Program-made: the position numbers and the translations under genes | DNA from: Amphiscolops sp. MND2022 | Lineage: Eukaryota | Length of the DNA stretch: 64,000 nucleotides | NCBI GenBank assembly: GCA_964187785.1 | Contig: OZ076409.1 | Span: forward strand, 6,264,001 to 6,328,000 | Direction of reading: 5' to 3' | Notes under the pieces: generated by a model | What the model saw: only the letters and a program-made list of their open reading frames with translations | Told to the model about the DNA's origin: nothing | The model's database searches: none | Shown here: piece by piece, positions 4,075 to 56,845 of the stretch | How the letters are laid out: every line of letters starts with the position of its first letter | How positions within the stretch are numbered: position 1 is the first letter of the stretch

Positions 4075-4823
4075 TATTTAAATCAACATCTTCAGTTTTT
4101 GAGTCACAAAAAACGAGTTAACTTTCCAGGGTCGAATTATTTAGGATCAAAAATTGCAACTGACATTTTTTGGGTCGAATTAATTAGGATCGAACTTACA
4201 GGTTACTATAGCAATGGTATAATATCAATGAAATTTTCACCTCTTTCGATCCTAGATGAAATCAAGTCACAATTCGATCCTAGATAACTTTGCATATTTT
4301 TCAATCCTTAATAATTCGACTCTGCACAACAATCCCCAAAAAACGGGTTAATTCGAACACAGTCACCGCCAAAATGTGTGAAAAATGTTCAAACCAAAAA
4401 CTCTACCAACAGAAAATAACTTCCTCTTTTGGCAGAAAATTTCGCATCTATTTGGCCCATTTTAAATGTTTTACAAATTTTCCTCAAAAATTTTGATGTT
4501 GGGGGAACAAAAAAGAACCTTTATTTAAAAAATTTTTGCCGAATTTTGTAAATTGTATTACGCAAATAGTTGGCTAATATTCCATGGTCTGAATAAAACG
4601 GCCCGTAAAGTTCTATTCGTCAATCAACTGTTCAGCATCAAAGTCAAAACCCATGTGAACAAAGTCAAACAAGATGGAAAAAATCAAAATTTTGGGGAAA
4701 GAAGTTTGTGAGCTCGAATTAATGAGTCATCAACAGAGTCAATTTCAATTTTTTTGTTGATTCATACTTGGTTCGAAGATTTACTGCTTTGCCAGGTGAA
4801 GTTCGCAATTGACGCGTTACACT

Positions 4824-18890: not shown

Positions 18891-21588
18891 TTCGGAATGG
18901 TTGTCAGGGAAAAAAAACGACAGAAAATAAAGATTCAAACTGTTTTTAACAGACACTCAAAACAAAACTGAAGTACTTTCACATAATTATGTAAATGATT
19001 CGTTAAAATAAAGGTAACAGGAAGCATATTGCATGTTTTGCCACTTGGTTGGATAAAAATTAGTTTTGAAATTGATGATCTCTTACTATGCCAAACTATA
19101 CTTATCAAACATACTACAGCAACGGCTCCGTAGCAAAACTAATCCAATGTACATATGTTTTTAACTATGTATCAACAAAAGGAGGAACGATTCTAGTTTG
19201 TTGATGAATGTTCTTTTTCAGTTTGATTGGCACTTCATTTTAGTGAACCGAATTTTTTCAGACGCGGTTTTACACCGTATTACATTCCCCTCTCGGGCTC
19301 TTTCCTCAATTTGGAAGTTGCTGGCATCGAGCTCATCAGTCTTTCAAAGTCCAAAGTCATATAGTCGTGGTAAATACTGTCTTGTTATTTCGGTTATGTC
19401 TTGAAACAAAGCATGTATTTGAGTTTGTTACCTTCAAAAGTTTTTGATATACGGCACTCCCCCGTACCTATTCGGCCGTTTACATTCTCGATTTGATCTT
19501 CTAACAAATTGTTTTATTTTGAATTTTATTTTTCACTCTCACCGATAGGTATCTCATCATTAGAATGCAGGGTTTATTCTTCTTCGGGATTTGTGCTGCT
19601 TGGCTTAGACCCGTTCTTTTCGGATGTATCTGGATTTTTCTTTTCGCAATCTTTTCTTCGTCTATTTTGACTTCATCGCTCTGATTGTCCGATTCTGTAT
19701 GATTTTCAGCTTCCCATTCAGTATATCTCGGAGTATCTCATTCCTCAGAATGTAATATCCGTCTTCCCCTTGAAGAAAAAGTGGACTTTTCGGGATGATT
19801 CTGTCTCCGATTTGCGATGCCCGGATTTGTTTTTTTTTCGTTCGGAAATACCATCGGTCCCGAAATTGTTTTCGGTAGTTACGGTATGTTCAGTTTCGCT
19901 GACCGCGGTTTGCAATGTTTTGGAGTTTTCTTTCGGGATATTTTTATCTGATGTTTTTTTTCCACAAATTTCAAAGTATAACCATTAACCGTATTTTTCT
20001 TTTTCGGTTGACTTTTCTGTTTTTCTTCGGCTTGGTTTTTGTTATCACGAGGTAGTTTGTGATGTCTCCGTCTCCGTCCCTTGATACGTAGATGGTCTTT
20101 TTGGCTTTTTCATAGCTGAAACAGACAGTGCGGACCAATCAGAAGGGTACAATTTACCGTCTTTAACCAGATTGAATACTTCGTTTCGTCGTTTTTCACA
20201 GCTATGTAATCCAAAGAATGTTAATTTTAATCCCGTTAAATTGTAAATTCTCTTTACGTTTATTGCTCAATAACCGAATTCGGTCAGGCTTAAGGTATCT
20301 TCTAAATTGGCCATCATCAGGTTCTTCATGTTTTGATTGCCCGTTCTGCTACTCCCAAACCGGTATGCATTCTTGGTGTGCAAAATTCGTTTTCAATTTT
20401 TTTTGACCATCAAAGCTCAATTAGTTCTTTCCAACCAACAATTCAGCCTTTATCCGAACCAAATCTTTCCGGTGTGCTGTATAATATTGTGCATAAGGTA
20501 AATTAGCACGTTCTTCGTCTCGTATATTTTACAAAATTCTACGGTTGGCTTTTTGCTAAATGTATCTTTCGCTAATAGTAATCAGCTTTCTCCATTGAGT
20601 TTTCAGATGTGTACTTTGTCTGTGAAATCAAATTGAATTTTTTGTTGCGGTTCGATAATTGTTTCAACTCTTCCGCTTTCGGCATTTGATACTTGAAGTT
20701 CTTACAGGACGCTAAGCAGGCTTTGCATTTTTTGACTTTATCTTTTATGTATTTGCTGATGTTTGGCCCCTGGAAAAGTTTTATCTCGGCAGCCATCTTG
20801 GTGGATCCGCAAGACCAATGTGTAGAGAGTGCAATAGTTTCTTCCGAAGTTCGGTCGGAACTACAATTTTGTCCTCATTTCATTGACAGTTTTTCGAAAT
20901 GTTGTCTCATTACAGTGGGGTAACCGGCAAGGCCTTCCAAAACTCGGAAAATGTTGGGCAAAAACTCGGGAATGCATGGGCGAGTTTTGTTGTTCATAAC
21001 TGAAAATCTCGGAAACGCATGGGCGAAGTCAACTAATTGTTGAACATAATCTGTCCATTCGTTTCCCACCAAGTGTGGCCTTTCAATTTGATAGAAACTT
21101 TGAATACATATCAAAAAATGTCCGAGATATACCTAATCAACTAAAGATAAGGATTTGCCGATTATCAGAATTTTAGTAAACCCTTCCCAGGTACTTTTTT
21201 TCGAAATAAATTTGAATAATGATTATCAAGCTTTCATGCTTCTCATCATTCCACCTTAAATCGAACAACTCTCATTTAATATAATTGAATAAGCTTAAAC
21301 TCATACTATATATCAATCAATAGGAAGATTAGGAGATTACAAGAAGATTAGATTGGTATCATAAGATCTTTCCGGGGGCTTGTCTTTTTGAACAATTTAA
21401 TCCTCATTACTTTTTGTTTGACTCAATTGTTTAATGTTATTGTTGTCAATTATTACAATGTCGCTCCACTACTGTTCTTTTGCCCCAAATCGAAAACAAA
21501 ATGATTCACAAGAGACTGATTCAATTAAGAAACATAATGGAAAAGATATCACAATTGTTATGGCAATGGATACAAAAAATGAATAAAT

Positions 21589-23156
21589 TTAAAAACTAAA
21601 CTGACTTCTGCAATTATTGGCTGCGGAACGACGATATTCGTCATCGCCATTTAAATTGTCCTGGAAACAATCGATAGATACTCGCACAGTTTTCAGCAGA
21701 AAATCGTTGTTAATTGAAAATTTTAGGCTTTTGATAATGTGGCAGAAAGTTTTAGGGAAGATTGGTGGGAGCATATCCCATTGTCGGCCTAGGGTACTGT
21801 CCCATTCTGCATTTTTGTGGAACTTTTCTGAGTCAGGATCTATATGAAATTTGACTTGGTGTCCAGAACCCATTAAAAAGATATTCTTGGAAATTTCGTC
21901 AACCAAGCAAATGTCCTGATTCATCATTGTGCGTTTGGACTGGGATATCCCGACCAAACGTTTCAGCGCTGACAGGTAATGAAAAGCTCTATTCACAGGT
22001 GAACAAGCTGCGGACAAGTCCAGAGCTTTCTGCTTCATGTAGTTTGCTTCTGTCAACACTAGCTTTACAGCTGGGTAAGTGATGGAGTAGCATCTGTCTT
22101 CTTCATCGACCAGTTTCGCCATGGCCTTCTTCATCTCCACGTCGAACCATATCTTCTCCAATTTCATCGTGAAGACCGTGCTCCTAATGTTTATCGTAAC
22201 GTGGTCACCTGATAACAGAATGCGAATATTCAGTTTCATTTAGTAATAATAATTTATTAACCACTTGAGAAAGATTTATGCGACAAAGTTTCTATAAGCA
22301 TGTAAATTTTTCGAGAGGACGCTCGTGGCAAAAAACTTGGTTTCAGTTTTTTTGTTTGATTTTTTTAGTACCGTAGAAGTTAGACTAGTAATAATCAAAT
22401 TGATCATTTACCTGCTGATGCAATACCATTTTCGCAGGGTACAATGTCCAGAAGTTCGTCTTTCTCGGCAAGACTCGCAATATATGCGGCAATATCAATT
22501 TTCTGTCTGGGAGTGGTTATAGTGGGTTCTGGTTCTGCATCTGTTTCTACTACTCTCTTTTTTTGCCGCGATGGTTGGACATCTTCGGGCTCCGAATCAA
22601 ACTCTGAAGGCTGCCTCGTGTCAGGATGAGTCCAGTTCTTCGGACGAATTTGTTCATAGTCGATGAACTGGATGTCCTTTGTGCGCCCGTCGAAGGAAAC
22701 AGCCATATTTTGCTGGAATGGGTCATTCATGACAACATAACCCGAGTTCAGCAGCTTCGACTCCTCGGCATCTTTTCTAACCTCTTCCAAACTAGGAATG
22801 TCCGCTGGTGATTTCCGTGATGTCCCAGTGAAAAAGATTCTGTCCCCTAGTTGGCGCTTTCTTGGGTCGGGGATGTCAAAAACGGTTTCTGCTGGCTTCT
22901 TGGATTTCCGGCGACCGCGGACATCTTGTAATACTATACATTTTCTAACCGGCCAGCAATTTTGGGGTGTGTTGGGGGACACTTCAATTCTGTCTGATCC
23001 GAATCGCTTCACAAGTTTATCGGGCCAATTGAGGTATTTCACTCGGATTCCAAATGATCCTTCAAACCCAATGATGCGAGCATCTTCCCAAATTTTTGTT
23101 GCAGGATCCAAAACTTGAACTTGCTCTTTCATATCAAAAACACTGATGAAATCCAT
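21589..23156 (-). CDS. Tudor/chromo-barrel-like protein; join complement(22412..23156,21589..22208), ~454 aa
   Basis: In-frame phase-1 intron (GCAG|gtaaat ... ttatcag|GT). N-terminus FDMKEQVQVLD...WEDARII...IRVKYLNW fits the PHF20-Tudor/MRG15 chromo-barrel pattern; possible second barrel (LGDRIFF...GYVV...MAVSFDG...FIDYEQIRP). C-terminal exon not recognised. Confidence 0.6.
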
Positions 23157-23431
23157 TTCAATTAATGAAATTAGTGCTTTATTTTTCAAGAAATTTAATT
23201 TCGTAAACGAGTATTTTCAGTATTGCATTTGCCACTAATGTTTATCAAGCAAGTTTGAGCAAATAAAATCGTTATCGGGACAAATGATTATCAAGTGAGT
23301 TTGATCGACTCAAATCGTTACATACGCATAAGATGAATTTTAAATGTCAGACGCATATTAATTAATTGTCAGACGCATTTTAAATGACAATAAACCCCCA
23401 GACACTTTTGCACGGAACATCCAAAACGTAG

Positions 23432-23760
23432 CACGATAAATTTATAATTTTTTGTCAAACGCTTTTCGATCAAGCAGACGCATTTCAAAATCCACGTGAG
23501 TGTGAGCACGCTAAAACTACAATTACTCGATTTATTTCCGATATAATCAATAACATCAATAACGTAATACGATAATTTTATAATATTTTGTCAAACGCTT
23601 TTCGATCAAGCAGACGCATTTCAAAATCCACGTGAGTGTGAACACGCTAAAACTACAATTACTCGATTTATTTCCGATATAATCAATAACATCAATAACG
23701 TAATACGATAATTTTATAATTTTTTGTCAAACGCTTTGCGAACCAGCAGACGCATTTCAA
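23432..23760. repeat. ~137-bp tandem repeat (about 2.4 copies) in the divergent promoter
   Basis: ACGATAA..TTTTGTCAAACGCTTT..GCAGACGCATTTCAA unit starts at ~23432, ~23569 and ~23705. Confidence 0.85.
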
Positions 23761-23865
23761 GAATGGAAACGCTAGTGTGGAAACGATAAAGTGTCAATAC
23801 GCTTTTGAAAAAACAACAACTACTAGAATAACTTCCAATATAACTTTCGACGTACGACAATCAGG

Positions 23866-26800
23866 ATGACAATACACCCCGAGAAGCTTCTGCACGATTA
23901 CACTGAAACAATTGATGGAAAAAGTTTTGTGGATGCTAAAATTTTGGATGTTTTTGCTGGGCATATTATAAGAGAAAAATCTCGAAAACTGAAAAGCGCG
24001 ATCGAAATAGTAATTGAAGGAACTGAATTAAAACTCGAAGATTGTGTAAAAAACAAAAAAAAACTTGCTTTGTTGCAATTGGAATATTGCAAATAATAAT
24101 TGTTCGTGGTTTACAAAGTGGGTTTCCATGGACACAATTACGAAGAAGATACGTGTCCTATTTTTTCCCAAATACGCCGCAGCTAATTCCCGACTCACAA
24201 CCTTTTGTCAATCCACTTCCAATGCCAACAATCCCAGTGGAGCAGTTTTCTAAACCTGAATCAGGTTTCAGTCAGAAGATGCATACAATTCTCGCAACAT
24301 TAGCAGCTACAGAACAAAAGCGGATTCATACTAAGGCCCAGAAGACCTCTCTGCATCAATTTGAAGCCAAGGCTCTGGTTAAGGGTGTTTTTTCAAACTA
24401 TTTATCGTACGAAAAGCTGAAGTCAGACATATTTATCTGTACTAAAACTGGTAGTTGGATAAATATGATCAACACGCTGAAAAAAACTTTCCATGTCGAT
24501 GGACTGGGTCAAAAACAACTAATTCCTGGTTATACGGCGATCAAAGAGATGTCAAAACCGATGATTTCAAAGTTTATATCCCTATTCAAACCAAAAAACA
24601 CTTTCTCGGGATTCAGAATTGATCTTGTACGTGCTATCAAAGTCATGACATTCATTCTGTTCAAAGGAAGAACTGATTTGCAAGGTCTGAAAGTTGATAT
24701 TTGGGGAGATGGTGTTCAAATAGGGAAAAAGGATCAAACTCGAATGGCCTTCCGTTTTCTCGAAGGAACATCTATCAGCAATCAGTCATCAGATGCACTC
24801 TTCTCTTTTGCTGTTTTCCAAGGTATGTTCTGCTATTTTGTCCTGCTGAATCTTTAAATATAATTTAGCTCTAGGTTAGCTTCGCACACTTTACAATACG
24901 TGTTTACAGGTCACGACGGTCGTTGGTTGCTAGAGCAAAATGTCGGGTACCTGGAACTAGGTGAGCAAGATTCCTCTTGGCTTTACCAGCAGACGAAACA
25001 ACTCCATGACGCCGGAGTCCTTTTAACATACAGTGGAGATCAACCATTCCTAAATCGCCTTCTCATTGGAACCTCTGTTGATCACATGGAGAGTGAAGAA
25101 AATCCATCAAAATTGCAGATGTATCTTGGGAATGACGATTCAGTTAAACCAGAAACCGTGCACGAAAAAAGTGGACATCGAGGTGATGTTCGCCTACCAT
25201 TTCGAACCACCATTCCTCATGAAAGTTTGACGTTTTTGCCAGACATCAGATGCGTTTGTCCCGACGGCACTCATGCAATAACAAGGTGTGTCGAGGGAGA
25301 CATTAGAAAGTTCATGGAGTTGAAAATTCTCCAATCTGAAGATGACTCAGCTACAGTTGATTATATTAGGGAAAATTTTCAGCGCAATTTGACCGAGAGA
25401 GGTTGGAAAGAGCCTGGCTTCGAATTTGACATTGACAAACGCAACAAAAAATGTGCTCCCATTTCCCTTAGTGGCAGAGAAGCTATCACTGGCATTGCTG
25501 ATATGTACGAACTTGCTGAGGCTGGTGTTCAGCATGAACTGTTCGAAGGAGTTTTTTCCGAGAACAAGACTGTTGGAGCCTTGTCGGGTACAAAAAGTGC
25601 AAGCATGAATGTGTTGAAAAATCTTCATCCCAATTCATTCGAAAATATCGAAAGCCCATGTCAAATGAAACTTTTGGTTGCAGCTGAACTCTGGAGAAAG
25701 TCACTAAATCAGCTTACCGTGCTGATGAGGACGAGGAAGAAATTCGAAGAACAGGACTTTTCCGACTATAAATACTGGTCAGAAATCCACTATCACATTT
25801 CGATTGTACTGTTCGATGTAAAACTAGGTTTGACACCGTACAGACTGAAACTGTGCCTGATTCCCCAGCTGTTAGAAGGAGGCTACATTGAATCACCCTT
25901 TAACCACCTGTGCGAAGGCCCCGAAAAATCAAATCATCATGTCCATAGAGACTTTCAGCAAAAGACCATGCGAGGGGGAGGGACAGTTCGACACGCCGAC
26001 CCCATGTTTCTCGAAATGTTTTTCACTTTCTGTTCTGGTCTCCGGTTTTCGACTTTGGAAGGCACAATCGACGAACAGCTCTCACTTTGCCATCAACGGC
26101 TTTTCAATGAACCCATAGAGGTGAACCTATCTTTTTTAGACTCCCTGGGACCAACTGAGAAAGCCATCATTCCCGTTGGAAAAGTTCGAGAGAAGTCCCG
26201 CCTTTTCTTGGGTAAGGATTTTTTTTGTACCTATATGCCCACGTCCAACTTTTTTAGTTATGAAACCTAAGTGGTATAAATTTAGCGAAATTTAGTTGGA
26301 TAAACCAACAATATAGTGTGAATTTTGCTTTTCTTGCGACTCCGAAATAAATGTAGTGGATCGTTGAACAAATGTTTGACTTGAGTTTTGCTGAATATTT
26401 GTATTGCACCGCAACACGTTGACAAATATTAGTCCTAAGTTACTCGGATGAAATACTTCCTCAAAACAGCAACAGATTCCAAGTACCACTGGCGTAGTGG
26501 TTACTTCGTGCGACGTTCCGTCGTTCCGCCGCTCGTTCGCTCTTGGTATACAGGTTCGCTTCTCTGCGCCGCTGTTGGTGCAGCCTTCGGTAACCAGTGG
26601 CTGGTATTGTGTCTGGTATTGTGTGTGGTAGCCATTGGCTGGTATTACTTGCCATAGATGTCGATTGCCGGTGACGACCGCGCATTCAACAACTGTGGCA
26701 ATTAGTGAGTAGATTGAGATTGGAATTCTCTCTGGCGGAAAGAGAAATCCAATCTCAATCTACTTATTTTTATGTTTTCAACTTATTATTTGCAATTAGT

Positions 26801-27833
26801 TCTTCGCTTAACAGTGAGTTTTGAATGATGCAATTACATACCTGTTCAGAACGATCGTAGCAAAGAAAATAGAATACAGTAGTGATATTATTAAAAGCAA
26901 CAAAAGGCAAATTTTAGAATCAAATATCTATCAAAAAGCATTTGACTGAAGGACTTGATATGTTTTGATTGAGAAATTATATTAAAGTCTCAATGAAACC
27001 ACGCTGTAAAAATAGGCGTTTTCGAAAATACTAAGTTTTTAATAATCTCACTACTGTACATGCAAAACCGTCTTAGAATTATACGGCAATAAGCACGTTC
27101 GGCAATGGAAGGACCACCTTAGAAACCTGTTGTTACATATTCGAAGTTCGGTATATAACCAATTGTTTTCACAGAACTAAACAATATTCCGTTTGCTCCA
27201 GGATCGAGATTCTTTCTGCACGGGAAATTCAATAAAGAGCAACGAATTCAACATGAAAACCAAGATGGAAAAACTCTTGGACCCGCTGAGTGTCTCAAAA
27301 AAGTTATCAAAAAAGCGGGAGGGAAAGTTCTAGAACGAGCAGCATTGAATACTCTCCTCTCCAGACACTCCAAGTTGCCACACATTTACGTGGTTCTCCA
27401 AAATGACACAGATCTTATTAGTGCAACAACGTCGTGTGATTCTTTGCCACAAGTGACAGAATTTATGGCCAAAGGAAAATGCAAAAAAAGGAAACTAAAT
27501 GAACCAAGTCGAACCAGTTACGTTTTACGACACTTGGCCAGTCGTGGACTTACGTTTCTATCCGTTGACTATATTTTGAAAAGTATCGAAACTTCAACAA
27601 TTTTGGATGTGGAGTCTTTTGCGTTCAAACCAGGGCCAGACATCCCATCAACTTCTGTTCGTGATCATCGCAAAATTTTCCTTCTTCAGAGGAATCCCGA
27701 ACTACAAAACACAACTTCAGCTATAACATCGGTACTTCGTAAACGACGAGAAATGCTGAAGAAGCGCGAACAAGAAAAAATGAATGACGCTCAGAAAGAA
27801 CACGATGAATCATCCTCAGACTCATCAGACTGA
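23866..27833 (+). CDS. RAG1/Transib/Chapaev-like DDE transposase with C-terminal BRCT-like domain; 23866..~24054, -1 frameshift, ..24822, 24910..26211, 27202..27833 (~960 aa)
   Basis: In-frame GT-AG introns 24823-24909 and 26212-27201. Ordered motifs KVDIWGDG, NQS..ALFSFAVFQGHD, YSGDQPFL, CPDGTHAITR, TPY, EGPEKSNH parallel the RAG1-core SCDG / YDEK / DALH / TNY / EGNESGNK blocks. Exon 2/3 junction LFLGSRFFLHG...LKKVIKKAGGKV...YVV...LSVDYILKSI fits BRCT. Confidence 0.72.
26877..27056. mobile_element. MITE in transposase intron 2
   Basis: TA|CAGTAGTGATATTATT ... AATAATCTCACTACTG|TA. Confidence 0.75.
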
Positions 27834-28235
27834 GAATCATTTGATAATCATAATTGATAAATCGTGAAAACTTTGATTCGAACAATAATAAATTATTTTT
27901 ACCTGTTTTTATTGTCAAAATTTAATTGAATCATTCGAATTGTTTTAAACAAATTCAAAATAGAAACGTACCAAAAAGTAGCAGCGCAAAATACTAAGTA
28001 AAAACCGAAAAGAAAGAATAAAACCAAATCTTTCAAAGACCAAGAACTGGAATTCAAAATTCTAAAGTATTACTACAGTAAACTGCGAAATTGCATCAAG
28101 TGCTGAAATACTTCGCTGAAAACAAGTTTCGAGATTTAATAATAATATATATCAATACAATGAAATAAAATAATAAAGGTTAAGAATATGTAAAACAAAA
28201 AAATTTTATCTCGAAAATGGTTTTCAACGAACTAA

Positions 28236-31200
28236 TCAATCAAGAGACCAAAAAGTGTTTCGACCGAGTTTTTTGTCAACAATTTGAAATAGGTGAGTTA
28301 ATGATATGTTCCTGTTTGGGAAATTGAGAGACATGTACCGGTTGATAGTTTGCACAAATTTTCGTCGATTGCTCTTGGATCGGCTGTCATTTTTGGAATT
28401 GAAGCTGAGGACATGTAGTGCTTTGGCCAGAAGCTCCCATTTCATTAGCCTACAGTTCCCAATGGCACTCTCTAGAATAACTTTCGTCATTAACGATAAG
28501 AAATGTGGGAAACATTTCTCAAGAGGTTCATCATTGTCCCGTTCCCTCTGGTAAACAGTCAAAGTCGTGTCTAAAAACATATATGCACAAGCATTAGTAA
28601 AACTGCCTCGAACCCATAGAAGAAGTAAAACCCGAATTTTTTTGAGAAATTAACTTAATCCGATTTTAATTTTAAAAATGAAGATTTTTTCGATTTTTTT
28701 GCTTTTTACCTTTTATCTCTTCTAACAAACAACTGAGAAACAATTATATGAAAACTGAATTTCAAAATTACCTAGATCACAGATGGTGAGAAAATTGAAT
28801 CCCACGGCCACGCTGTCCGCACAGGTTCTGACCATATGTATCATGCCTGCTGGCATGATCATTGACTCGCCGCCTGTTATCGTCACTTTAAACACTTGAC
28901 TTTGGAGGTGGGTGTCACTTGGTAGGAAAACATTTTGTTTTGTTGCCTCAATGCACCAATTCTCGAGAATTTCTTGGTTTCGAACTGTTCCAGGAATCAT
29001 GAAAAACTCTTTTTTACCGTGAAGAAGATGGTAAAAGACGCTGGTATTCGTGTAGTCAACATGCCAAGGTGTAATGGAACCTTTTTGACTGAGAAGAATA
29101 TAGCAATTTTGCTCCAGCTCAAAATTGAATAAATGAGACACTGAAAGTTCTTTAACTGCCGTTGGTACATCGAAATGCAAGTTCTTTGTGAGACTGGAGC
29201 TAAGATCAAGGACATTCATTGGGCCGCTCATAGCTCCAAACTCAATGGCATTTACAAAATCTTTTCCTGAGAGTGTCAAACACAGGAGTTTTTGCAGCTG
29301 AAATAGACATGTGTTGTATATGAAAAAAGAATACACTTCGAAGATCTACAATTTTGGTTTTAAAATATAAAAACCCTAATATTTTTTAAATGTTCGGTTT
29401 TCATTGGTGAAGTTAAAAAGACGAAGCCAAAAACGAACACTGACAGGTTTGTACATTCGGACAGATAATTGTACATCTTCTGCGTGTAGACAGTCTTCGA
29501 AGATGTTTCTTCGCGCTCCAAAGTTGATGTTGGGCAATTTCATACCATCCATATGTCCTCGAACAATACAGGCTCTTTTCCGCTGCAGCTCCTCCTCTAT
29601 TTCGCTGCTGGTAACATTGGTGCAGCAAACTCGCATCTCGGACCCGGAAGATTCTCTGATTACATCCAGCAGCTCATGATGCTCTGCTTCATCCACAAAT
29701 GCAACCAGAGAAACTTCTTCATCTTCTGCTTGAACCTGTTCGTAGCTGTTGGAATCTGAAACGAAAATTGTCAATATCATAATAAAGTTTTTTAAATGAT
29801 TGGTAGATGTTTTTCGAATACTTTTGATGAGTATCAGTGGATTCGTTTGGCAAGTAGTAAAATTGGTATGTAGAAATTTTGATATAGGTAAAACAATAGG
29901 ATTTTATTGTACCTTGGGGATTGTGTGTGGCTACTTCTTCACTTTCGTCTTCCTCACGGTTCTCTTCCTGGAGGGATTCTTCATTGCTGTCAGAATCTGA
30001 AACAAACATCGTCAAAATCAATTTAACGTTATTGAGATGATTGGTTGTTTGTCGAATATTTTCGATACGTAATATTGATATAGGTAAACAAGTCGAAGTC
30101 GTGTCTAAAAACACATATGCACAAGTATTAGTAAAACTGCCTTGAACACATGGATGGAACAAAATCCGATTTTTTTAAAAATTAACTCAATCCGATTTTA
30201 ATTTTAAAAGTAAAGATTTTTTGATTTTTTTTGCTTTTTACCTTTCATCTCTTTTAACAAATAACTGAGAAACAATATTTTATGAAAACTGAATTTTATT
30301 GTACCTTGGCGAACGTGTGTGGCTACTTCTTCTTCACTTTCGTCTTCCTCACAGGTCTCTTCCTGAAGGGCTTCATTGCTGTCGGAATCTGAAACAAAAA
30401 TCGTCAAAATCATTATAAAATTATTGAGATTTGTGGATGTTTTTCGAATATTCTCGATAAGTATCAGTGGAATCGTTTGACAAGTAGGCAAATTGGTGTA
30501 GAAAAATTGATATAAGTAAAACGATAGGATTTTATTGTACCTTGGCGAACGTGTGTGGCTACTTCTTCTTCACTTTCGTCTTCCTCACAGGTCTCTTCCT
30601 GGAGGGCTTCTTCATCGTTGTCAGAATCTGAAACAAAAATCGTCAAAATCATAATAAAGTTAGAGAAGATTGGATGTTTTTCGGATATTTTCGATAAGTA
30701 TCAGTGGAATCGTTTGACAAGTAGTCAAATTGGTGTAGAAAAAATGATATAGGTAAAACAATAGGATTTTATTGTACCTTGGCGAACGTGTGTGGCTACT
30801 TCTTTTTCACTTTCGTCTTCCTCACAGATCTCTTCCTGGAGGGCTTCTTCATCGTTGTCAGAATCTGAAACAAAAGTCGTCAAAATCATAATAAAGTTAG
30901 AGAAGATTGGATGTTTTTCGGATATTTTCGATAAGTATCAGTGGAATCGTTTGACAAGTAGTCAAATTGGTGTAGAAAAAATGATATAGGTAAAACAATA
31001 GGATTTTATTGTACCTTGGCGAACGTGTGTGGCTACTTTTTCACTTTCATCTTCTTGACGGTTCTCTTCTTGGAGGGCTTCATTGCTGTCGGAATCTGAA
31101 ACAAAAATCGTCAAAATCATAATAAAGTTAGAGAAGATTGGATGTTTTTCGGATATTTTCGATAAGTATCAGTGGAATCGTTTGACAAGTAGTCAAATTG

Positions 31201-33847
31201 GTGTAGAAAAATTGATATAGGTAAAACAATAGGATTTTATTGTACCTTGGCGAACGTGTGTGGCTACTTTTTCACTTTCATCTTCTTGACGGTTCTCTTC
31301 TTGGAGAGCTTCATTGCTGTCGGAATCTGAAACAAAAATCGTCAAAATCATTATAATGTTAGAGAAGATTGGATGTTTTTCGGATATTTTCGATAAGTAT
31401 CAGTGGAATCGTTTGACAAGTAGTTCACAAATTGGTGTAGAAAAATTGATATAGGAAAAACAATAGGATTTTATTATACCTTGGCGAACGTGTGTGGCTA
31501 CTTTTTCACTTGCATCTTCTTGACGGTTCTCTTCTTGGAGGGCTTCTCCATTGCTGTCAGAATCTGAAACAAAAATCGTCAAAATCATTATAAAGTTATT
31601 GAGAAGATTGGATGTTTTTCGGATATTTTCGATAAGTATCAGTGGAATCGTTTGACAAGTAGTTCACAAATTGGTGTAGAAAAATTGATATAGGAAAAAC
31701 AATAGGATTTTATTGTACCTTGGCGAACGTGTGTGGCTACTTTTTCACTTTCATCTTCTTGACGGTTCTCTTCTTGGAGAGCTTCATTGCTGTCGGAATC
31801 TGAAACAAAAATCGTCAAAATCATTATAATGTTAGAGAAGATTGGATGTTTTTCGGATATTTTCGATAAGTATCAGTGGAATCGTTTGACAAGTAGTTCA
31901 CAAATTGGTGTAGAAAAATTGATATAGGAAAAACAATAGGATTTTATTATACCTTGGCGAACGTGTGTGGCTACTTTTTCACTTGCATCTTCTTGACGGT
32001 TCTCTTCTTGGAGGGCTTCTCCATTGCTGTCGGAATCTGAAACAAAAATCGTCAAAATCATTATAAAATTATTGAGAAGATTTGTGGATGTTTTTCGAAT
32101 ATTTTCGATAAGTATCAGTGAAATCGTTTGGCAAGTAGTCAAACTGGTATGTCGAAAAATTGATATAAGTAAAACGATAGGATTTTATTGTACCTTGGCG
32201 AACGTGTGTGGCTACTTCTTCTTCACTTTCGTCTTCTTGACGGTTCTCTTCTTGGGGAAAGTGTGTGACTACTTCTTCTTCACTTTCGTCTTCCTCATAG
32301 GTCTCCTCCTGGAGGGCTTCATTGCTGTCGGAATCTGAAACAAAAATCGTCAAAATCATCATAAAGTTATTGAGAAGATTTGTGGATGTTTTTCGAATAT
32401 TTTCGATAAGTATCAGTGGAATCGTTTGGCAATTAGTCAAACTGGTATGTCGAAAAATTGATATGAGTAAAACGATAGGATTTTATTGTACCTTGGCGAA
32501 CGTGTGTGGCTACTTCTTCTTCACTTTCGTCTTCTTGACGGTTCTCTTCTTGGGGAAAGTGTGTGACTACTTCTTCTTCACTTTCGTCTTCCTCATAGGT
32601 CTCCTCCTGGAGGGCTTCATTGCTGTCGGAATCTGAAACAAAAATCGTCAAAATCATTAAAAAGTTATTGAGAAGATTTGTGGATGTTTTTCGAATATTT
32701 TCGATAAGTATCAGTGGAATCGTTTGGCAAGTAGTCAAACTGGTATGTCGAAAAATTGATATGAGTAAAACGATAGGATTTTATTGTACCTTGGCGAACG
32801 TGTGTGGCTACTTCTTCTTCACTTTCGTCTTCTTGACGGTTCTCTTCTTGGGGAAAGTGTGTGACTACTTCTTCTTCACTTTCGTCTTCCTCATAGGTCT
32901 CCTCCTGGAGGGCTTCATTGCTGTCGGAATCTGAAACAAAAATCGTCAAAATCATCATAAAGTTATTGAGAAGATTTGTGGATGTTTTTCGAATATTTTC
33001 GATAAGTATCAGTGGAATCGTTTGGCAAGTAGTCAAACTGGTATGTCGAAAAATTGATATAAGTAAAACGATAGGATTTTATTGTACCTTGGCGAACGTG
33101 TGTGGCTACTTCTTCTTCACTTTCGTCTTCCTCACAGGTCTCTTCCTGGAGGGCTTCTTCATCGCTGTCAGAATCTGGTTCGATGTGAACTCGACGGTAC
33201 CGACGTGACGTCCTTCTCTGTTCTCTTCTTCTTCTCGAATCCATCCTCGCTTGCCATCGTGGGTGTTCGATCTTCTTCTTTGGGGTCCCTTTGATTTTAA
33301 TCAGGTCTTTGATTCGATGGGAATAACCTTTCCCCTCCCGCCGTCTTTTTTCCGACCAGCTGTACTCTCCTGGCACATTGCCTTTGGGCTTTTTTTTAAG
33401 AACAGCGGATTCCCCTTTAAGATAAAACGATTTGTATTTTTGCTTCAGGCAATCGTAAGCAGAACTTTCCTTGCACAATTCCTCGATGTTTTCTGGTGTT
33501 GGTTCCAACAAATTTCCTGGGTACCATTCCTCCCTTTGCAACTCAAACACTTTCAGGGTGCAAGTTCTTCCGAGGGAGTGTTGAGCGGTCCTGTGATAGC
33601 TAAAGAACGGTCCTCCGTCTTTCTCGCCGCATCCACAAAAGCGACAAATAAAATTTGCCCGACTCTAAATTTTTTGTGCAATGCAGGTGAACTCCAGCTG
33701 GTGTTCTTCAACAGGTCTCTTCCTTGGTGCCCAGTCTTTGTACATGTGCCTCTGGCACGCAACTTTTTCGCTGAATTTTCTCCGGCATTCTGAAACACAT
33801 ATTCCGATTAGTATTGGTGAAAAACATGTTTGAAAAAAAATCGACAT
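28236..33847 (-). CDS. Zn-finger + acidic-repeat + JmjC histone demethylase (KDM2/KDM7-PHF8 type). Exons: ~33089-33847 (start uncertain; in-frame TAG at 33665-33667), 12 repeat exons, 29445-~29755, 28772-29297, 28236-28570
   Basis: MNVLDL, CYILLSQKGSITPWHVDYTNTSVFYHLLHGKKEF, GESMIMPAGMIHMVRT..DSVAVGFNFL and the downstream VYQRE....KCFPHF match the KDM2/7 JmjC and JHD helix. Fe ligands HxD...H and 2-OG residues T/Y/K/N are present. Splice phases are consistent. Confidence 0.82.
29755..33180 (-). repeat. Tandem array of intron+exon units (~230-240 bp and 298 bp) encoding DSDSNEALQEE..EEDESEEEVATHVRQ
   Basis: Each unit has a tttgtttcag|AT acceptor and a CAAG|gta(c/t)aat donor; the units I translated are phase 1-1 and frame-preserving. 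12 repeat exons, plus one copy at the end of the large upstream exon. Confidence 0.9.
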
Positions 33848-34404
33848 TTTAAATTCTATTTCAGATATCCGAACAGATCATCAAAATGATAATGCCATTT
33901 AAGACTTGGAAACGCATGGGCAATTTGAAACGCAGAAATACATGGCTTTTTCATTGCTTTTCATCACTCGGAAACGGATGGGCGAAAGTTCAATTCATTT
34001 TATGCCAATTAGCTTACGTTATTTCATACTTCGGTTTTTATCCCCTATTTTGAAACGATAATTGAAGGTTCGCACGTCATCAGGTAATTATCACCACAGT
34101 TGATTTGAAAAGCGTCCTTAAATGAGCTCATCTTCATGCAAATCTAAATAGCACATCCGCAAAGCTATTACCAACGGTATGTACTACTTTTTTCAATAAT
34201 TAAATAATTCATTATCAGAAATGAATAATTATCATATATGTACTATTTAATACGAAGATCACCATTTTTCTTTAATTATAATATACCACAGTTGATTGAC
34301 GAAGCGTCTTTGAATTAGTTCGAATTTGGATCGCTCAAGGAAAGGATTGAGCACTCACCATTCAATCCAAACAGTAGCTAGAAAACAGTCTCTTTTACAT
34401 AACG

Positions 34405-36820
34405 ATGAACCCTCCTCAACATGAGAAATCTCTCTCTTACACTGTCTTGGGGACTAGCCCGGCTGTGACAAATTCTGTTGCTCCAAACGAAACATTTGAA
34501 AGATTTTCGACTCCATTTAAACCGAATGAAAGCAACTTTGCATACTACATGAGTACTCCCTTGGATCAATCTAGTTCGACACAACAGTTGTATGGATCAC
34601 CCAGTGTGTCATCTAAAAGCTGGCCAAGTTTCACCCAAGTTGAACAAAGGATATTTTCACAAATCTCTAATATAGAAGGTGTGAATTATGAAGATAGCCC
34701 TTCGGACGTCTCGATAATGGTACAAGCTCAACTTGCTGCAAATCAAATGACACCTCTGTTAATCAACACTGCAAATCAACTGAACCACACTCCGAATGAC
34801 AGTACGACGAATCAACTGAGCCACACTCCAAGTGACAGTACGACGAATCAACTGAGCCACACACCGAGTGACAGTACGACGAATCAACGGAGCCACACCC
34901 CAAGTGACAGTACGAGCCACACTCCGAGTGACATCATGGCAAGCCAACTGAGCCGTTCTTCAAGTGATATCGCGGCAAGTCAGCTGAGCCAAACTCCGAG
35001 TGATATCATGGCAAGTCAGCTGAGCCGTTCTTGCAACGACACCTTGGCAAACATGGAAAGATGCCAACAGGAGATAGCGAACAAGCGGAAACTTAACCAT
35101 TATGATGAGGAAAACCATGGCCCAAAAAGTAAACGATGTGTTCCCAAAAACTATGAGAAAAATTTGCGAGAAATTACCCCAGTGCACCTAACATTATGCA
35201 CAACTGTTGAAGCGCGACTCTTGTCAGACCTTTATGACATAATGAAGCAATTCAAATTCGCAAAATCTCTAACCAGCATTGACAAAACCAATTTGTTTGG
35301 GGACCTCATTGCTTATTTGCTGGAATTTTCTATTCCAAAGTGTAGAGATCGCAAAATTTTGAGCATTACAACTCATGCCGTTTTACAAATGGTCCCTCAA
35401 ATTCAGCACAATAGAAGTTCTAACTCAAGTGACTTGTTAGTCTTGCAAATTGAAGATGAAGCTGGGTACTTGGACAGCTTCAGAATTCCTCACATTGTTG
35501 GAGAAGCAATGTTAATATATTTTGAAGCTGTACGACCGTACTTCATAAAACCTGAAGGTATCGACCAGAAAAAAAGGTTCATGCAGTCACCCAGTCAAGG
35601 GATACCACCATATTACGTCATGACGGAGCCATTCTTTGTCAACAGCTGGGGAAAAACACAATTCAAAGTGCGGAACATAAGAAATCGGATTGAACAGGTA
35701 ACTAATCAAATACTGTTTGATAAGAATTACTTGACTCAGTTTGATTTGTATTAGTCGATAGTAACCATAAGACATAATCACAAGTTGGAATATCAAAAAC
35801 ATCTTCCTTTTGCAGTTTTCGCTTATTTCAATAACTATCTGCGTGTTCTAGTTTTCCGACTTGACAAGAAACCCAGCCGAACGTGAAATGGACAGATTGG
35901 AAAGAACTGTCAAACTGATGACACTTTCAAAATGTTCAGCAGAAGAAGAATTTTGGTCTGAATCTTACCTGATGATGGAAGTCAAAAAACATTTGAGGCC
36001 CAGCGGACATTACGATGACAGAACGGTCATGAAAGTAGTCGAAAAAAGAATTCAAGCACTTAGGCATCAAAGAGCAGATATTAGGGCGGCCGAATACAAG
36101 AGCCACTACCCTACATCACTAGCTGACCCTGCGAAAGAAAGAGAGAGAATAATCGATTTTGCAAACTTGGTCAACTGGCCCCACTTCACAGATGTAAAGA
36201 GAGTCATGGATGCTTCTTCTAGAATGTCTGGGGTATCAAGATCTCGACAAAGTTCGCGCAAAAAAGCATTCAATCCAAATCTAGAATGGAGACTTTGCAA
36301 TACCCCTTACTTCCAAGATGACTTGAAAGATAGATGCGAAAACCAATTCTGGCCAGGCGTCTGCGATGTTGTCTATCCTACAATGGGTCGAGGAATAATC
36401 GCGACCAAACCATTTAACAAGGATGACGTTATTTTTGACTACCACGGACATGTAGAAGAAAACACGAACAACGTCGACTACTACTGCAGTCTGGACCCAG
36501 AGAACCGCAAGCCAGAATACTGCATCGAGGTTAAAACAAGGCCGGGAAGAATTATTGATGCAACCTCGGAAATATGCCCCATCCACAACGATGGCAGAAG
36601 GTGCCTTGCTCGATTGTGCAATTACTCAAGTACCTTTGATGGTGGAAAGACCAACCCAGCTTGTAACATGAAACTGGTCGAATTGAAATGTACATACTTG
36701 AAAAATAATCCGCGTTACGTGCTACTTATTGCAAAGCGGAAAATTGAACCCCTGGAGCAGCTGATGTTTGATTACATGGACCCCGAAGCCAATAGAATTT
36801 TCGGCGGTAATGCCGAGTAA
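34405..36820 (+). CDS. SETD8/PR-Set7 (KMT5A)-like SET-domain protein; join(34405..35697,35852..36820), ~753 aa
   Basis: Phase-0 intron (GAACAG|gtaact ... ttctag|TTT). C-terminal GRGIIATKPF.KDDVIFDYHG, IDAT, LARLCNYS, LLIAKRKI...EQLMFDY match SETD8 (GRGVIATKQF..GDFVVEYHG...RLINHS...EELLYDY). N-terminal Ser/Thr-rich 12-aa repeats. Confidence 0.85.
34775..35040 (+). repeat. 36-bp coding minisatellite (NQLSHTPSDSTT-like, ~7 copies)
   Basis: Repeated CAACTGAGCCACAC.CC.AGTGAC units inside ORF 34405. Confidence 0.85.
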
Positions 36821-36909
36821 AACCATTGATAAACTCGAACTTTGTTTTTAACTTATCAGTTTTTATATAATTTTTGTTGGAATATTAGTCATTGTCATCT
36901 AGTCAAATA

Positions 36910-37146
36910 CAGTGGTGATATTTTTAAAAGCAACAAAGCCGCTTCAAAGTCTGCGGCAGGTGAAAAAAAAACTTCAAAGTCATCCCAAAACATGTATTTT
37001 CGAAAAAATCTTCAAACAAACATATTTGTAAACTAGATAAAAATCTAGAATACGTTTATTTTTATAAGTTTTCATAAACCACTGCCGTTTTAGAGATATT
37101 CGATTTTGAGATTTGCCTTTTGATGCTCTCAATAATATCACTACTG
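36910..37146. mobile_element. MITE, same family as 26877-27056
   Basis: TA|CAGTGGTGATATT ... TTTGCCTTTTGATGCTCTCAATAATATCACTACTG|TA. Confidence 0.75.
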
Positions 37147-37653
37147 TATATTATCTTCGGGTTTTGTTTTCTTTGTCAATTTTGAATTCAAAATATGCCA
37201 ATGGATATTCCAAAAAGCAGATATCGATTAACACTCTCAAGGAATCATATAAAAGAACTAACTGGGGCAGACGGTCGGATCGTTGAGGAGGCTGATTTGA
37301 TCCCTATCAGTCAAAATGTGCTCCTGGAGAGTGACTTGTTCATCATCGGTCTCAACTTCCTCGTTTCCTGCAGCAACGTAGTCAAACGTGAAACATTCGG
37401 ATTTAGTTTTCCTATTATTCATGTGTTCAAATAGTGGTTGATGAACTGCGGGCATTAGTCAAAACATAGACACATGTAAGATTTCAAAAAGTTCATGTTA
37501 AAAACTAACTCTGACAGACGGTTGGCTCATCTCTGTCAGTCGAAACGCCGCGGTGTTCTTGAAGAACTGCTTCGGTACTGGCTTCTCTATCATGATGAAG
37601 GCTTGGCCTAAATTTGGGCTGAAAAAAACAACAAATTTGCCAAATTTACATTA

Positions 37654-37700
37654 AAGTGGGGTAACCGACAAGGCCTTCCAAAACTCGGGAATCCATGGGC
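37654..37700 (+). repeat. Internal direct copy of the transposon left end
   Basis: catta-AAGTGGGGTAACCGACAAGGCCTTCCAAAACTCGG versus catta-CAGTGGGGTAACCGGCAAGGCCTTCCAAAACTCGG at 20908-20947. Confidence 0.9.
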
Positions 37701-40700
37701 ACGTTTTGATATCCGTAACCGAATTTCTGGCAACCAAATGAGCAAAACTTTTGAGATTAGAATAACAGTGTATTTCTATATAAGCATTATATTTAATTTT
37801 TTTTGACTAAGAAATATCGGTGAATTCCCAAATAACATAAGAGCAAATAACATAAAAACAAAATTAGTTTCAAATAACATTAAAATGAAATGGGTTTCAC
37901 TAAACATAAAAATAAAATTGTTAATGAGAAAATATCAGTGGTCAAAAGCATACACAATTCAAAAGATTCACTGAAAAAAGTGTGGAAATTACAGATAAAA
38001 TTTTCTGAGTTCGATCGTTTTACCGGGTATTCGGTTTTATTTTTATGTTCTTTGACACTAATTTTGTTTTTATGTTATTTGCATTCATTTGTATGTTTAG
38101 TGAAACTCATTTCAATTTTGTGTTTTGAAATTAATTTTATTTTTGTTGTTTGTTCTTATGTTATTTAGGAAATCACCAACGTTTATCAAGAAAAAATATT
38201 GAAAGCAATTATTAAAACCAAAGTATTAAAAAGCCAACCCTGAAAGTTAATAAATCAACTGATTAACTCTAACCTGTTTCAAATGGTCCGGTAAGTCGTC
38301 TAGTTCAATGTCCAGCTTCCGGATCCGTAAAAGTAACGTTTTTAACATGGCAATGACAATTGAAAACAAATGACTAACTTTTACACGCACAGTATCAATA
38401 TGACCTCATCGGAATATGCGATGAAAGAATTTCGTCCAATCAGAAGCGAGTATTCGGTTTCGTTCATCAAGATTACATGTAGTTTGATCAACAGAAAAAC
38501 AAATAAACTTTTGCTCCCGTATTACAACAATCTTACTGATTTACTTGTGCACTTAAATCACTAAAATGGAAGTGAAATTACTTTGAACATTTAGTAACAT
38601 TCCACTTCTTGGAGCGTTGACTTTAACAACTGATAAGAACGTTCACACTTTGAAAAAATGGTGAATATCAGAACAATCATTTGATCAATTCTCAATAAAT
38701 AAATCAATGACGTTTCACAGGATACCAACTCAATTAATAAATATGAAAAAATCAATTGTTTTGTTATGATTGAAAAAACCTAAACTCATTTTATATATCA
38801 ACTATACTGTTCTTTTGCCCAAAACAAAGAATCCTGATTTTTGATGATTAGATTAATTGTCAATAAATAAATCAATGACGATTCACAGGATACCAATTAA
38901 ATTAATAAATATCAAACAACCATATATATCAATCAAGGTGAATAGTTGAATAAAGTTGTTTCTGTAGTAAGTGTACAACTATCAAACAATTTTTTGTTAT
39001 GATTGAAAAAACTTAAACTCGTATTATATATCAACTATACTGTTCTTTTGCCCCAAAACAAAAACGATTCACAGAATACTGATTTAATAAGTTCCAAAAA
39101 AATGAAATACATCAAAATTACATACTAACACATCATAATATACCTACACATCATAATACATCAAAATATTTGTAATTATCATAATTGCCCGATCATAATT
39201 GCCATTATATACAAAAGAAAAGAATAGTTAAGTATTAAACAGTATTAAAATAAAGTAAACTAAAATTTATCACGATAATAATCTTGCAGTGATTGGCCGG
39301 AACGAAAAAAGTATTAGGGTTATATTCCTGCAGATATCGGCTTCGGAACGAAGATTTTCGTCATTGCCAATTTTATTTGTCCCGCCTAAAATACTGGGAA
39401 AATAATAGTTGAGCTGATATTTCTTAGTCAAAAAAAATTAAGAATTTAATTTGATAACTAAATTAATTTTAGCTGAATTAATTTGATAAACCAAAAACTG
39501 AACACTGAAAATCTGCATGTGTAGATAAATATTGAGACACTTCCATGTCAAAGCAGTGTATTGAATTGGCCGAAGCGAGTGGCAGATCTATCTAAATCTT
39601 GAAATTCTTTGAGCAAGCGATGGAATTACTTGCCCAATTTACTCTCATCAACGAGTATGCATGGGCAATTAAAGCCATCGCTCCTGCAAAGAAACTCAAT
39701 ACGTAGCTTGTGCTTCCTCGGAAATCAATAGGCAACAGTTTTGGCTGCGAAACGAATGGGCATTTTTGGCCCATACATTCATTCATGTCCATCATTTTCC
39801 GAGCCGCACAACGAGTAAAATCTGCATTTTCGTTGCCGGTTACCCCACTGTAATGCTGTATGCTCTGCTGCTATGGTGCTGTCTTCTCTATTCAAAGCTT
39901 TTTTCACCCGGATCATTTCGGATTCCAATGTTGATTTCGCTATCTTGCTTTTTAGGTCTAGCATGAAATACGTTTCCGCCATTTTGATTGCCTCTAGGGG
40001 GATTTTTTTTCATTTCGGTGACTGAGTCGAAGATTTGGTTGATTTGCACGAGATAAGTTTTTTCCTTTCTCTTCTTTTTCTGGGTCGTCCATTTGATTTT
40101 CCGGGACTTATTACTCCGGTTGTATTTCTTCCGGTTCGTTTTTAGTTGCTTCAAAAGGCTGATAGCCTCCCCCAGTCGATTGGTGCGCGGCTGAAGCTCT
40201 CAGCCAATTTCAGCATTTTCCTCTCTGCTTCTTATAGTCGGTCGCGACGCGACACATATTATCCTTTGCGCATTTTGGTTGCAGCTTCGTCTCATTGTAC
40301 CGGGTATGTTTATCTCCCATCGTCTTTCCACTAATCTTCCTGTCTCCGGACTCTACTCACGTCGTGGAATATTCTCCTTCGTTTCTGCAAACGCCCCCTG
40401 TGGAAATAATCTCGATCCATTTCTTACCCAAAAGATGATAATGATACCGTTTGACAATTCTGTAATTGTAAGCGTTTTCAGCGTTTTATTTTAAGTGAAC
40501 TGCTAAGTGGACTAGTTTCCGCTTGTTCGTTTATTTTGTTCACGTCTCAGTTTCTCTCGAATCTGCCAGTCTTTTCTGATTGGTTACTTGTTTTGGGTTC
40601 GTTTTTTTTGTTCGTTACGTTCTGATATTAGCTCGTGATATATCGTCCATATTTTAATTACAACTCGGTTTGCTTGGTGGGAAAATTTATCACGTATTGT

Positions 40701-53075: not shown

Positions 53076-54139
53076 CCCGGTTGGAGGGATTTGGGATGAC
53101 AGTGCAGGGGCCAAATGTGCAGAGGATGGTTGTCTCAGCGTGGGCTTCGACTAATTCCTTCGTTCGGTTGGGGAAAAAATCCTTCGCTGGTACTGAATTA
53201 ATAGATCCTTCGTTAGTAATGTCCCGTGTGGATCTTCTCTGAGATGGAGACATCGACAATCGTTTCTCGTCTGGCATTATCCTTAGTAATTTCGGTTAAA
53301 ATAGGACGCGGCAACTCTATTTCTTGGCCCATCGGAGGATGTCCGCTGATCTGCATTTTTTTGGTTGTCATACTTTTGTCAGGAGCTGACTGGCTGATTG
53401 TCTCGGTGAAACTTTGCTTTTTTGCTGGCGAGTTCCCCTCCAATTCGCCTACGCTAAGTAGATACTCAGCGAAGCATCAGTGTTGATTTAGCAGCAGGAT
53501 GGTGCCGCTAATTTTTGTTTTCTGGAAACTCGGCGGTGAAAAACAGATGGACTGTTGCTATAGCAACTGTCGCTCGCTCTGATTGGCTGAGACTGATTTT
53601 TATAATCGGAAAACCACAACTGATTGTCAACAACACATTCTTCGTGAACCACTCTCCGTAAAGTCGATTGAAAATCGCCACGATTTCCGTTGAGCATTTC
53701 CGCTCACCTTCGCACGTAGTTGCTCTGAGACTGGCAGCTGTCATCAAAATCAAATACTTGAAGTGTTTTGTAGTAGTAGTCAAATTTCAGAGAGTACTGG
53801 TCCATTTCAGAGAGTATTGAGGCGAGTCGTATTTTTGAAAGATAAAGTGAGGGCTGTCCTGAAATCGAAGAATTTTCATCGTTTTCTCGTCCGTTGAATT
53901 CAAGTATTTGGTTTACCTCTGCGGTCGGGCTGCATTCTCGCTCTTTGAAAACTTGGTCGTGAATTTGTATGATCGTAATCATGGTTGATCAGGCCATTTA
54001 ATTACTGATCAAACTCATGTCCTAACTTCTTCGACTTCTTTCCTCTCTTCACTTTCTTTCGTTCTTTTCAGATTCTTGGTTGAATTTCTCATCTCTCTTT
54101 TCAAAATGTCAGATGAAGTGCACTCCGTTCACTATTTAC

Positions 54140-56769: not shown

Positions 56770-56845
56770 TATCTTATCCATTTTCTTGGTTGTGTGTAGT
56801 GTGGTCTGTTGTTAGTCGAGTGTCGCGCGTGTTTGTTTTACATTA

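Follow-up and report, generated by a model that had tools for sequence, protein, structure and literature searches.

The stretch of DNA analysed here (the window; 64,000 nucleotides of contig OZ076409.1 from Amphiscolops sp. MND2022, assembly GCA_964187785.1, positions 6,264,001 to 6,328,000 of the forward strand) contains an 18,948-bp sequence at window positions 20908–39855 (+ strand) that is, with near certainty, a transposon. It is flanked by a CT target duplication (20906–20907 and 39856–39857) and encloses a transposase gene at 23866–27833 (+). The account that we favour, and consider reasonably probable as a whole, is that of a recently amplified DNA transposon that starts with CATTAC and duplicates 2 bp of variable target sequence (target-site duplication, TSD). 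Its transposase lacks the zinc motifs and would combine a RAG1/Transib-type fold with a BRCT domain, and its cargo (SET, JmjC and an orphan gene) would edit the chromatin of the element itself and so preserve its mobility. The original prediction for this stretch was confined to the transposase gene: the gene is real, and the 18.9-kb element with its cargo had been missed, as had a frameshift in exon 1.

The ends of the element were determined by comparison of copies within the genome (1.07 Gb searched). End searches gave 40 scored matches, from 194 and 143 candidates for the two ends. The TSD set consisted of the window copy and 28 other copies, paired by position and with both ends fetched. 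The left terminal inverted repeat (20908–20930, +, 23 bp) starts with CATTACAGTG, and the right one (39833–39855, −, 23 bp) is perfect; the ends of the window element read CATTACAGTGGGG...CCCCACTGTAATG, and those across copies CATTACAGTG...CACTGTAATG. The original prediction had placed the ends at CAGTG, next to a TA duplication. The five bases outside CAGTG are near-invariant (28–29 of 29 insertions per column) and are therefore part of the element rather than of the target site, and the claimed TA lies within the repeat. Directly outside the true ends, a 2-bp duplication matches in 29/29 copies and takes ten values (AA in six copies; AC, AT, TA and GT in four each; TT in three; CT, TC, AG and TG in one each), CT being that of the window copy, and 3-bp matches were found in one copy out of 29. 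The same 29 insertions show no target-site preference beyond A/T richness. A 17-bp subterminal motif has nine matches in the window against 0.28 expected, every one of them within the element (three at 20943–21024, +; the others at 33905, 33967, 37684, 39717, 39745 and 39787); these repeats are likely transposase-binding sites.

Dozens of near-identical copies of the element are present in the genome. Twenty-one young copies are 99.5–100% identical over 4.3 kb; over its full length the window element is matched by one other copy at 99.8%, and two more align at 99.2–99.7% in large blocks; from this near-identity, a recent burst follows. When the genome was searched with exon 2 of the transposase, 97 of 1021 candidates were scored and 98 matches obtained, with further groups at 41–45% identity. 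The sister families measure ~17.8 kb (B), 15.2 kb (C) and 19.9 kb (D) and likewise begin with CATTAC, and the termini CATTAC..GTAATG are common to the four families. When fetched copies with one end in view were left out, 2-bp duplications were read in 5/5 copies of family B, 2/2 of family C and 4/6 of family D (11/13 in total), which brings the count over four families to 40 of the 42 copies with both ends read. Both misses in family D abut an (AATC)n repeat: two insertions on G000:C12 and C13 (L114–L116 and L118–L120) abut it on opposite sides, without a matching TSD, perhaps as a result of recombination or misassembly. Also seen were an internally deleted derivative of ~0.9 kb with both ends and an AC duplication (L057, G000:C7:54612565-54613641), a copy with its right end and flank duplicated 1.6 kb downstream (L058, G000:C4:78200300-78202079), and a family-C copy on C4 within which a family-D end sits.

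The transposase gene was resolved into three exons separated by introns of 87 nt (24823–24909) and 963 nt (26212–27174) with GT-AG borders and compatible phases; these introns rest on the GT-AG sites, the reading frame and the intronless sister families. Exon 1 (23866–24822, +) encodes the N-terminal domain and the first presumed catalytic Asp (WGDG, 24708). Exon 2 (24910–26211, +) holds the SGD (25038), DxxH (25263–25274), TPY, HxxExxExSNH (25914–25925) and MRGGG blocks, as supported by its open frame and by homologs, and exon 3 (27175–27833, +) encodes a single BRCT domain with a basic/acidic tail. After splicing, 2/21 young copies (L008 and L020) read through to where the fetched locus ends without meeting a stop, and an in-frame spliced copy would by arithmetic encode ~972 amino acids. 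In sister families the homolog is not interrupted by these introns, L087 for example holding an open frame of 1017 codons. A run of nine A (24055–24063) frameshifts exon 1 of the window copy, which stops after 76 codons. This run has nine A in 12 of the young copies, eight in seven and ten in one, and one copy carries a different, in-frame variant. Among nine older copies fetched, eight show the site with a C inside the run, and three read open through exon 1. Other homopolymers are more even (A7 runs stable in 21/21 copies, a T8 run in 19/21). The variation in length may be real slippage or assembly error.

A RAG1/Transib-type fold is very probable for the transposase, as judged from a predicted structure. 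The AlphaFold model was that of the family-B transposase (a sister family; 84 sequences, pLDDT 85.7). In a Foldseek search with this model the listed rows at E≤0.001 were all RAG1, BbRAGL or HzTransib (best E 1e-6), and comparison with VIA gave Z 19.2 for RAG1 (rmsd 3.5, 381 aligned), 17.2 for HzTransib and 11.4 for the P element, in agreement with the RAG1/Transib-like assignment of the original prediction; identity to RAG1 in the structural alignment is 10–12%. Language-model neighbours at 0.93–0.95 include RAG1 and DUF1280 clusters (a DUF1280 cluster at 0.93 serves as a lead only with regard to Chapaev, Mirage and Lanisha). The D-D-E layout proposed earlier, with its DxxH and TPY blocks, is likewise present in the sequence (Asp codons of WGDG at 24708 and of SGD at 25038, DGTH at 25263/25272, EGPE at 25914/25923) and near-invariant among homologs: in family-B numbering, D315 is found in 58/59, D395 in 63/65, D465 in 57/59, H468 in 58/59, E687 in 51/53 and E690 in 52/53 sequences, and H684 and H694 are near-invariant as well. 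In the model, D315 lies on a strand (309–319), D395 just past another (389–394) and E690 on a helix (687–703). The ExxExxN block of RAG1, which we take as a guide to the catalytic Glu, suggests by its likeness that the second Glu of ExxE would be the catalytic one.

Both zinc motifs, CxxC and H(3–4)H, are lost; to the original prediction, too, a CxxC after the second Asp and a His after TPY were not evident. CxxC after the second Asp occurs in one of 56 homologs, where it is incidental and next to DxxH, and in 0/19 members of a mostly distant set; His after TPY occurs in 0/51. Control EnSpm transposases of the same genome gave CxxC in 11/12 and H(3–4)H in 10/12. Pfam transposase families had no match to the window exons, to 44 alignment members or to 16 distant members, and Pfam RAG1 had none from window exons or homologs. 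A sequence search of the PDB with the transposase and its profile gave nothing below E 0.56 and no RAG1/Transib match at E≤10. The search of the genome with PF12940 returned no candidates, its control being silent too.

The BRCT domain in exon 3 was recognised both by Pfam (BRCT_2, E 3.7e-6, slightly past the cut-off) and by structure comparison (Z 11.6; model range 821–966), so that the three-exon gene with a C-terminal BRCT proposed earlier stands. Among the 53 aligned sequences in which the last Glu is present (many of them fragments), 40 cover the domain; it is present in distant members too and is under purifying selection in one family pair (proportions of nonsynonymous and synonymous differences pN 0.15 and pS 0.52). 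It is single, and fits the lone BRCT of Rev1 and the repeats of MDC1 and BRCA1 equally (Z 11.2–11.6). In BRCA1 and MDC1 the phosphate pocket is formed by a Ser/Thr before the Gly of strand 1 and a Lys of helix 2; the corresponding positions 835 and 926–930 are variable in the homolog alignment, with no conserved Ser/Thr or Lys. The earlier reading as a phosphopeptide or phospho-histone module is not supported, and the lone BRCT is more likely a dock for repair proteins or DNA ends than a phospho-histone reader.

The remainder of the element carries cargo genes on both strands. The orphan gene (21589–23216, −) consists of two open frames here, is conserved in sister families as one open reading frame (ORF) of ~430 amino acids, and has no Pfam or PDB match; the pattern of its N-terminus is putatively Tudor/chromo-barrel-like. 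A KDM2/PHF8-like JmjC catalytic exon (28722–29345, −; JmjC E 1.1e-9) is open and retains HVD, K and H; KDM2A (E 3.4e-18) and PHF8 (E 2.1e-17) were matched, with the iron ligands intact. Further open frames at 28236–28649 and 29376–29903 (−) are likely exons of the same gene, as is, in likely part, a tandem exon–intron array (29913–33212, −). This array contains ten matched exons (81–141 nt, each a multiple of three, open and acidic), and its repeat unit of 237/298 bp is a duplicated exon–intron unit with a frame-preserving acidic mini-exon, so that the 3.3-kb array is accounted for by ten acidic mini-exons; 9, 9 and 10 units were matched in three other copies. The 5′ part of the JmjC gene is likely a Cys/His-containing and basic exon (32963–33664, −). 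No C2H2 fingers were found in this window exon; in family B they occur at that position (E 4.4e-7). JmjC exons, array and Cys/His exon (28236–33664) would form one transcript.

On the opposite strand, the exon at 34405–35754 (+) encodes a low-complexity N-terminus followed by what is predicted, on a family-C relative, to be the N-terminal half of a tyrosine-recombinase-like catalytic fold. The family-C model matched four Xer entries (XerH, XerD and XerA, Z 7.5–8.1) over the first half of the catalytic domain, and the neighbours of this part include a DUF3504 cluster and a weak integrase; Pfam integrase had no match from the window exon. Tyrosine recombinases have the catalytic set R..K..HxxR..Y; the columns taken for it, the presumed catalytic Arg included, are not conserved in the alignment of recombinase-like proteins. 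A SETD8/KMT5A-like SET domain follows (35852–36820, +; SET E 2.5e-8; Z 13.1 against hSET8 for the family-C model); in family C a single ORF holds both this domain and the recombinase-like part.

Cargo and transposase occur together in family B and in 5/5 regions from families C and D, and 7/7 regions picked by the recombinase-like gene alone hold this transposase. In family D, tblastn scores for the recombinase-like part and for the N-terminus of the orphan were under the threshold, and these two were identified by inspection. Cargo gene order and orientation differ between families. When family B was compared with a 70%-identical family, eight cargo segments gave pN 0.13–0.22 versus pS 0.64–0.83 (some saturated); judged by these sequence comparisons, the cargo is under purifying selection in this one family pair. 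Outside this genome, the orphan adjoins the transposase in 5/20 short metagenome loci (four by profile, one by tblastn).

In the mechanism that we propose, the transposase would bind the terminal and subterminal repeats and excise the element in RAG/Transib style, likely with hairpins on the flanks, by means of a metal triad formed by Asp(WGD), Asp(GD) and the second Glu of ExxE. Insertion would be staggered by 2 nt and show little preference for particular targets, and the lone BRCT would likely dock proteins or DNA ends, recruiting end-joining or gap repair. The zinc-finger–JmjC protein would strip repressive H3K9/K27 methyl marks from element DNA and the recombinase-fold–SET protein would write an H4K20me1-like mark on it, each being aimed at the element by its own DNA-binding parts. 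The frameshifted window copy was likely moved by enzyme from in-frame copies, unless the length of the A-run is an assembly error. The folds of transposase and cargo are predicted; the ends, the 2-bp duplication, the number and youth of the copies, the gene set, the loss of the zinc motifs and, for one family pair, purifying selection on the cargo are shown by the sequences. An anti-silencing role for SET, JmjC and orphan together is given an even chance or slightly better; transposons carrying SET, VANC and TET anti-silencing genes provide precedent (PMC12730594).

Several observations weigh against this account. At the exon-1 A-run the reading frame is broken in 19 of the 21 young copies. 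The structural models are those of sister-family proteins, 42–45% identical to window exon 2 in the case of the transposase and ~32% identical to the window exon in that of the recombinase-like part (family C), and the predicted grouping of D-D-E in the model refers to layout and secondary structure rather than to spatial distances. The recombinase-like match is middling at the Z scores given above and covers residues 1–166 only. The SET domain of the window family has NY where the sister families and SETD8 have NH, and may be weakened. SET and JmjC were found in 0/20 metagenome loci, the contigs of which (1.1–7.4 kb) are mostly too short to reach them. H4K20me1, finally, is not plainly an activating mark.

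The element might instead belong, as a diverged member, to one of the groups that Repbase already lists (Transib, Chapaev/EnSpm or PlavakaB-like); in that case it has lost its zinc motifs secondarily and is possibly deposited under such a label; we regard this as unlikely, with more in its favour than the two alternatives that follow. Its nearest fold is indeed that of RAG1/Transib, and its CA..TG ends with a 2-bp TSD fall within the range of the CMCT clade, in which PlavakaB has CATCA..TGATG ends and a TSD of 2–3 bp (PMC12730594); TSD and terminal inverted repeats are moreover labile in Transib, a TA case included (bioRxiv 10.64898/2026.08.26.747230). Because the true ends and TSD lie within the CMCT range, the oddity that the original prediction had argued from the ends falls away, and the novelty rests on protein and cargo. 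Against this reading, neither a Pfam transposase family nor a RAG1/Transib sequence of the PDB was matched, identity to RAG1 is as low as stated above even in the structural alignment, CxxC is missing in 19/19 mostly distant members, and the EnSpm transposases of the same genome keep their zinc motifs and show no resemblance to the core profile in HHalign (probability 0.4%). EnSpm membership in particular was ruled out by this HHalign result and by the absence of PF02992 at the listed element copies.

Two other explanations concern the cargo. It may serve integration and excision rather than anti-silencing, with orphan and BRCT reading chromatin or damage sites and SET/JmjC shaping donor or target toward gap-filling that restores the donor copy. 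SETD8-like SET and BRCT both belong to DNA-damage pathways, and the orphan is the partner found outside this genome; the insertions nevertheless show no target preference beyond A/T richness, the single BRCT is without a conserved phosphate pocket, and both enzymes are predicted to have DNA-binding parts of their own, which fits self-targeting, so that we hold this explanation to be improbable, roughly one case in several. Far less credible is that SET, JmjC and orphan are passively captured host fragments (Pack-type), or that they make up a nested second element which the recombinase-like protein mobilises. Gene order and orientation do vary between families and nested insertions do exist within the element, but the same gene set is kept in families ~40% identical in transposase, the cargo is under strong purifying selection, 7/7 recombinase-gene regions hold this transposase, the presumed catalytic Arg column is not conserved, and no internal ends or empty sites turned up. 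The conserved gene set, co-occurrence and selection largely refute passive cargo, and recombinase-driven mobility was ruled out by the TSDs and the missing catalytic residues.

The profile of the RAG1/Transib-like, BRCT-fused transposase matched 615 clusters (50% identity) at E≤0.001, some weaker ones possibly via BRCT alone, and 211 at E≤1e-30; none of 20 clusters looked up bears a transposase name. Searches of viral and of prokaryote genome contigs yielded no confirmed relative, and a viral or Polinton-type origin is without support. In the literature searched, which left Repbase, Repbase Reports, Dfam and subscription papers largely aside, no BRCT-fused RAG-like transposase or SET-plus-JmjC transposon was described. 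Within these searches the earlier suggestion of an unclassified lineage is backed, and the lineage is probably undescribed, Repbase and Dfam entries lying outside the comparison. Tentatively, and at somewhat less than even chances, it may form a superfamily-level branch of the RAG1/Transib clan: zinc-free, BRCT-fused, spanning hundreds of unnamed clusters, and comprising giant, still-moving elements with a self-targeted histone writer–eraser–reader kit (recombinase-fold–SET, zinc-finger–JmjC and Tudor-like protein). The clan from which RAG1 arose would gain a large, recently active branch, and a branch working without the zinc module would be a natural test of the role of that module and of how TSD spacing (2 vs 5 bp) is set. 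One transposon would also bring together two candidate enzymes under selection, a histone methyltransferase and a demethylase, so that anti-silencing encoded by a transposon could be tested in an apparent animal genome. Intronless open transposase copies exist and place biochemistry within reach. With 23-bp ends enclosing ~12–15 kb besides the transposase, and with little preference as to target, the element is of interest for the delivery of large cargo.

Further features were noted within and around the element. A 136-bp tandem repeat (2.5 copies, 23416–23760) separates the divergent orphan and transposase genes. Two insertions resembling miniature inverted-repeat transposable elements (MITEs), one in transposase intron 2 (26877–27056, CAGTAGTG ends) and one at 36910–37146 (CAGTGGTG/CAGTAGTG ends), do have CAG ends and TA duplications; intron 2 also holds a 24-bp near-perfect hairpin (26708–26764). 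At 37649–37700 (+), 2.2 kb from the right end, the left end of the element recurs internally in diverged form and in the same orientation; this is likely the remnant of a nested related element. An AT-rich fold-back repeat (37792–38204) also occurs in the family-B copy L088 (~4800–5000) and is probably a host MITE inserted in both. Elsewhere in the window, host-gene exons at 4800–10658 read in translation like a glutaminyl cyclase/M28 peptidase, and an 8-kb tandem duplication at 50167–60500 contains gag-like open frames with CCHC knuckles, which we take to be remnants of long-terminal-repeat retrotransposons. The same genome holds open canonical EnSpm transposases (L214–L225), some as identical copies.

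Among known systems, Crypton-type elements and DUF3504 proteins are those to which we would liken the recombinase-like part: Cryptons share a tyrosine-recombinase-like fold in a eukaryotic mobile element, whereas here this fold is partial, likely non-catalytic and SET-fused, and the element around it encodes a DDE enzyme and leaves TSDs. The phosphopeptide readers BRCA1 and MDC1 have two BRCT repeats and a conserved pocket, in contrast to the single domain with variable pocket positions found here. HarbingerS, oomycete MuDR with SET, plant VANDAL and TET+ fungal transposons resemble the element in carrying a chromatin- or DNA-modifying enzyme of their own with a proposed anti-silencing role (PMC12730594); their transposases are unrelated, and the present element has a candidate writer, a candidate eraser and a third conserved gene. 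Size alone is not new, since EnSpm and KDZ include giant elements of >10 kb (PMC12477816).

The closer comparison is with the CMCT clade, which, according to PMC12730594, comprises EnSpm/CACTA, Mirage, Chapaev, Plavaka, ESTA, Lanisha and Transib and is stated to have C(2)C and H(3–4)H in all members. The element shares with it CA..TG termini, a TSD within 2–5 bp and, in the model, a RAG1/Transib-type fold with D-D-E, and some members likewise carry epigenetic cargo (TET/JBP; PMC12730594). It differs in its BRCT fusion and in lacking C(2)C in the interval from the second D to the final E and H(3–4)H ahead of that E; with these two protein features absent, it is not filed in any named CMCT member. 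None of the 19 PF02992 (Transposase_21) matches in the genome lies at listed copies of the element, which, together with the HHalign value, sets it apart from EnSpm/CACTA. ESTA has a fixed TA TSD, as against TA in 4/29 here. PlavakaB, compared by its published description, has the nearest termini (CATCA, differing by one base from CATTA here) and has zinc motifs that are absent here, where no Pfam match was obtained. With Transib, RAG1 and RAGL the element has in common the predicted catalytic-core fold (Z 17–19), the D-D-E layout, the DxxH, TPY-like and ExxExxN blocks and CA..TG ends (PMC1131882; PDB 6xnx, 6pqx, 6b40). It departs from them in giving no sequence-level match in the PDB and Pfam searches, in its 2-bp TSD and CATTAC ends (5-bp TSD and CAC-heptamer ends there), traits that are labile in Transib and so weigh less than the protein, and in having a C-terminal BRCT and neither zinc motif (CxxC and H(3–4)H without BRCT there). 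Where those systems measure 3–4 kb or have a RAG2-like partner, the present elements extend over 15–20 kb and carry chromatin cargo.

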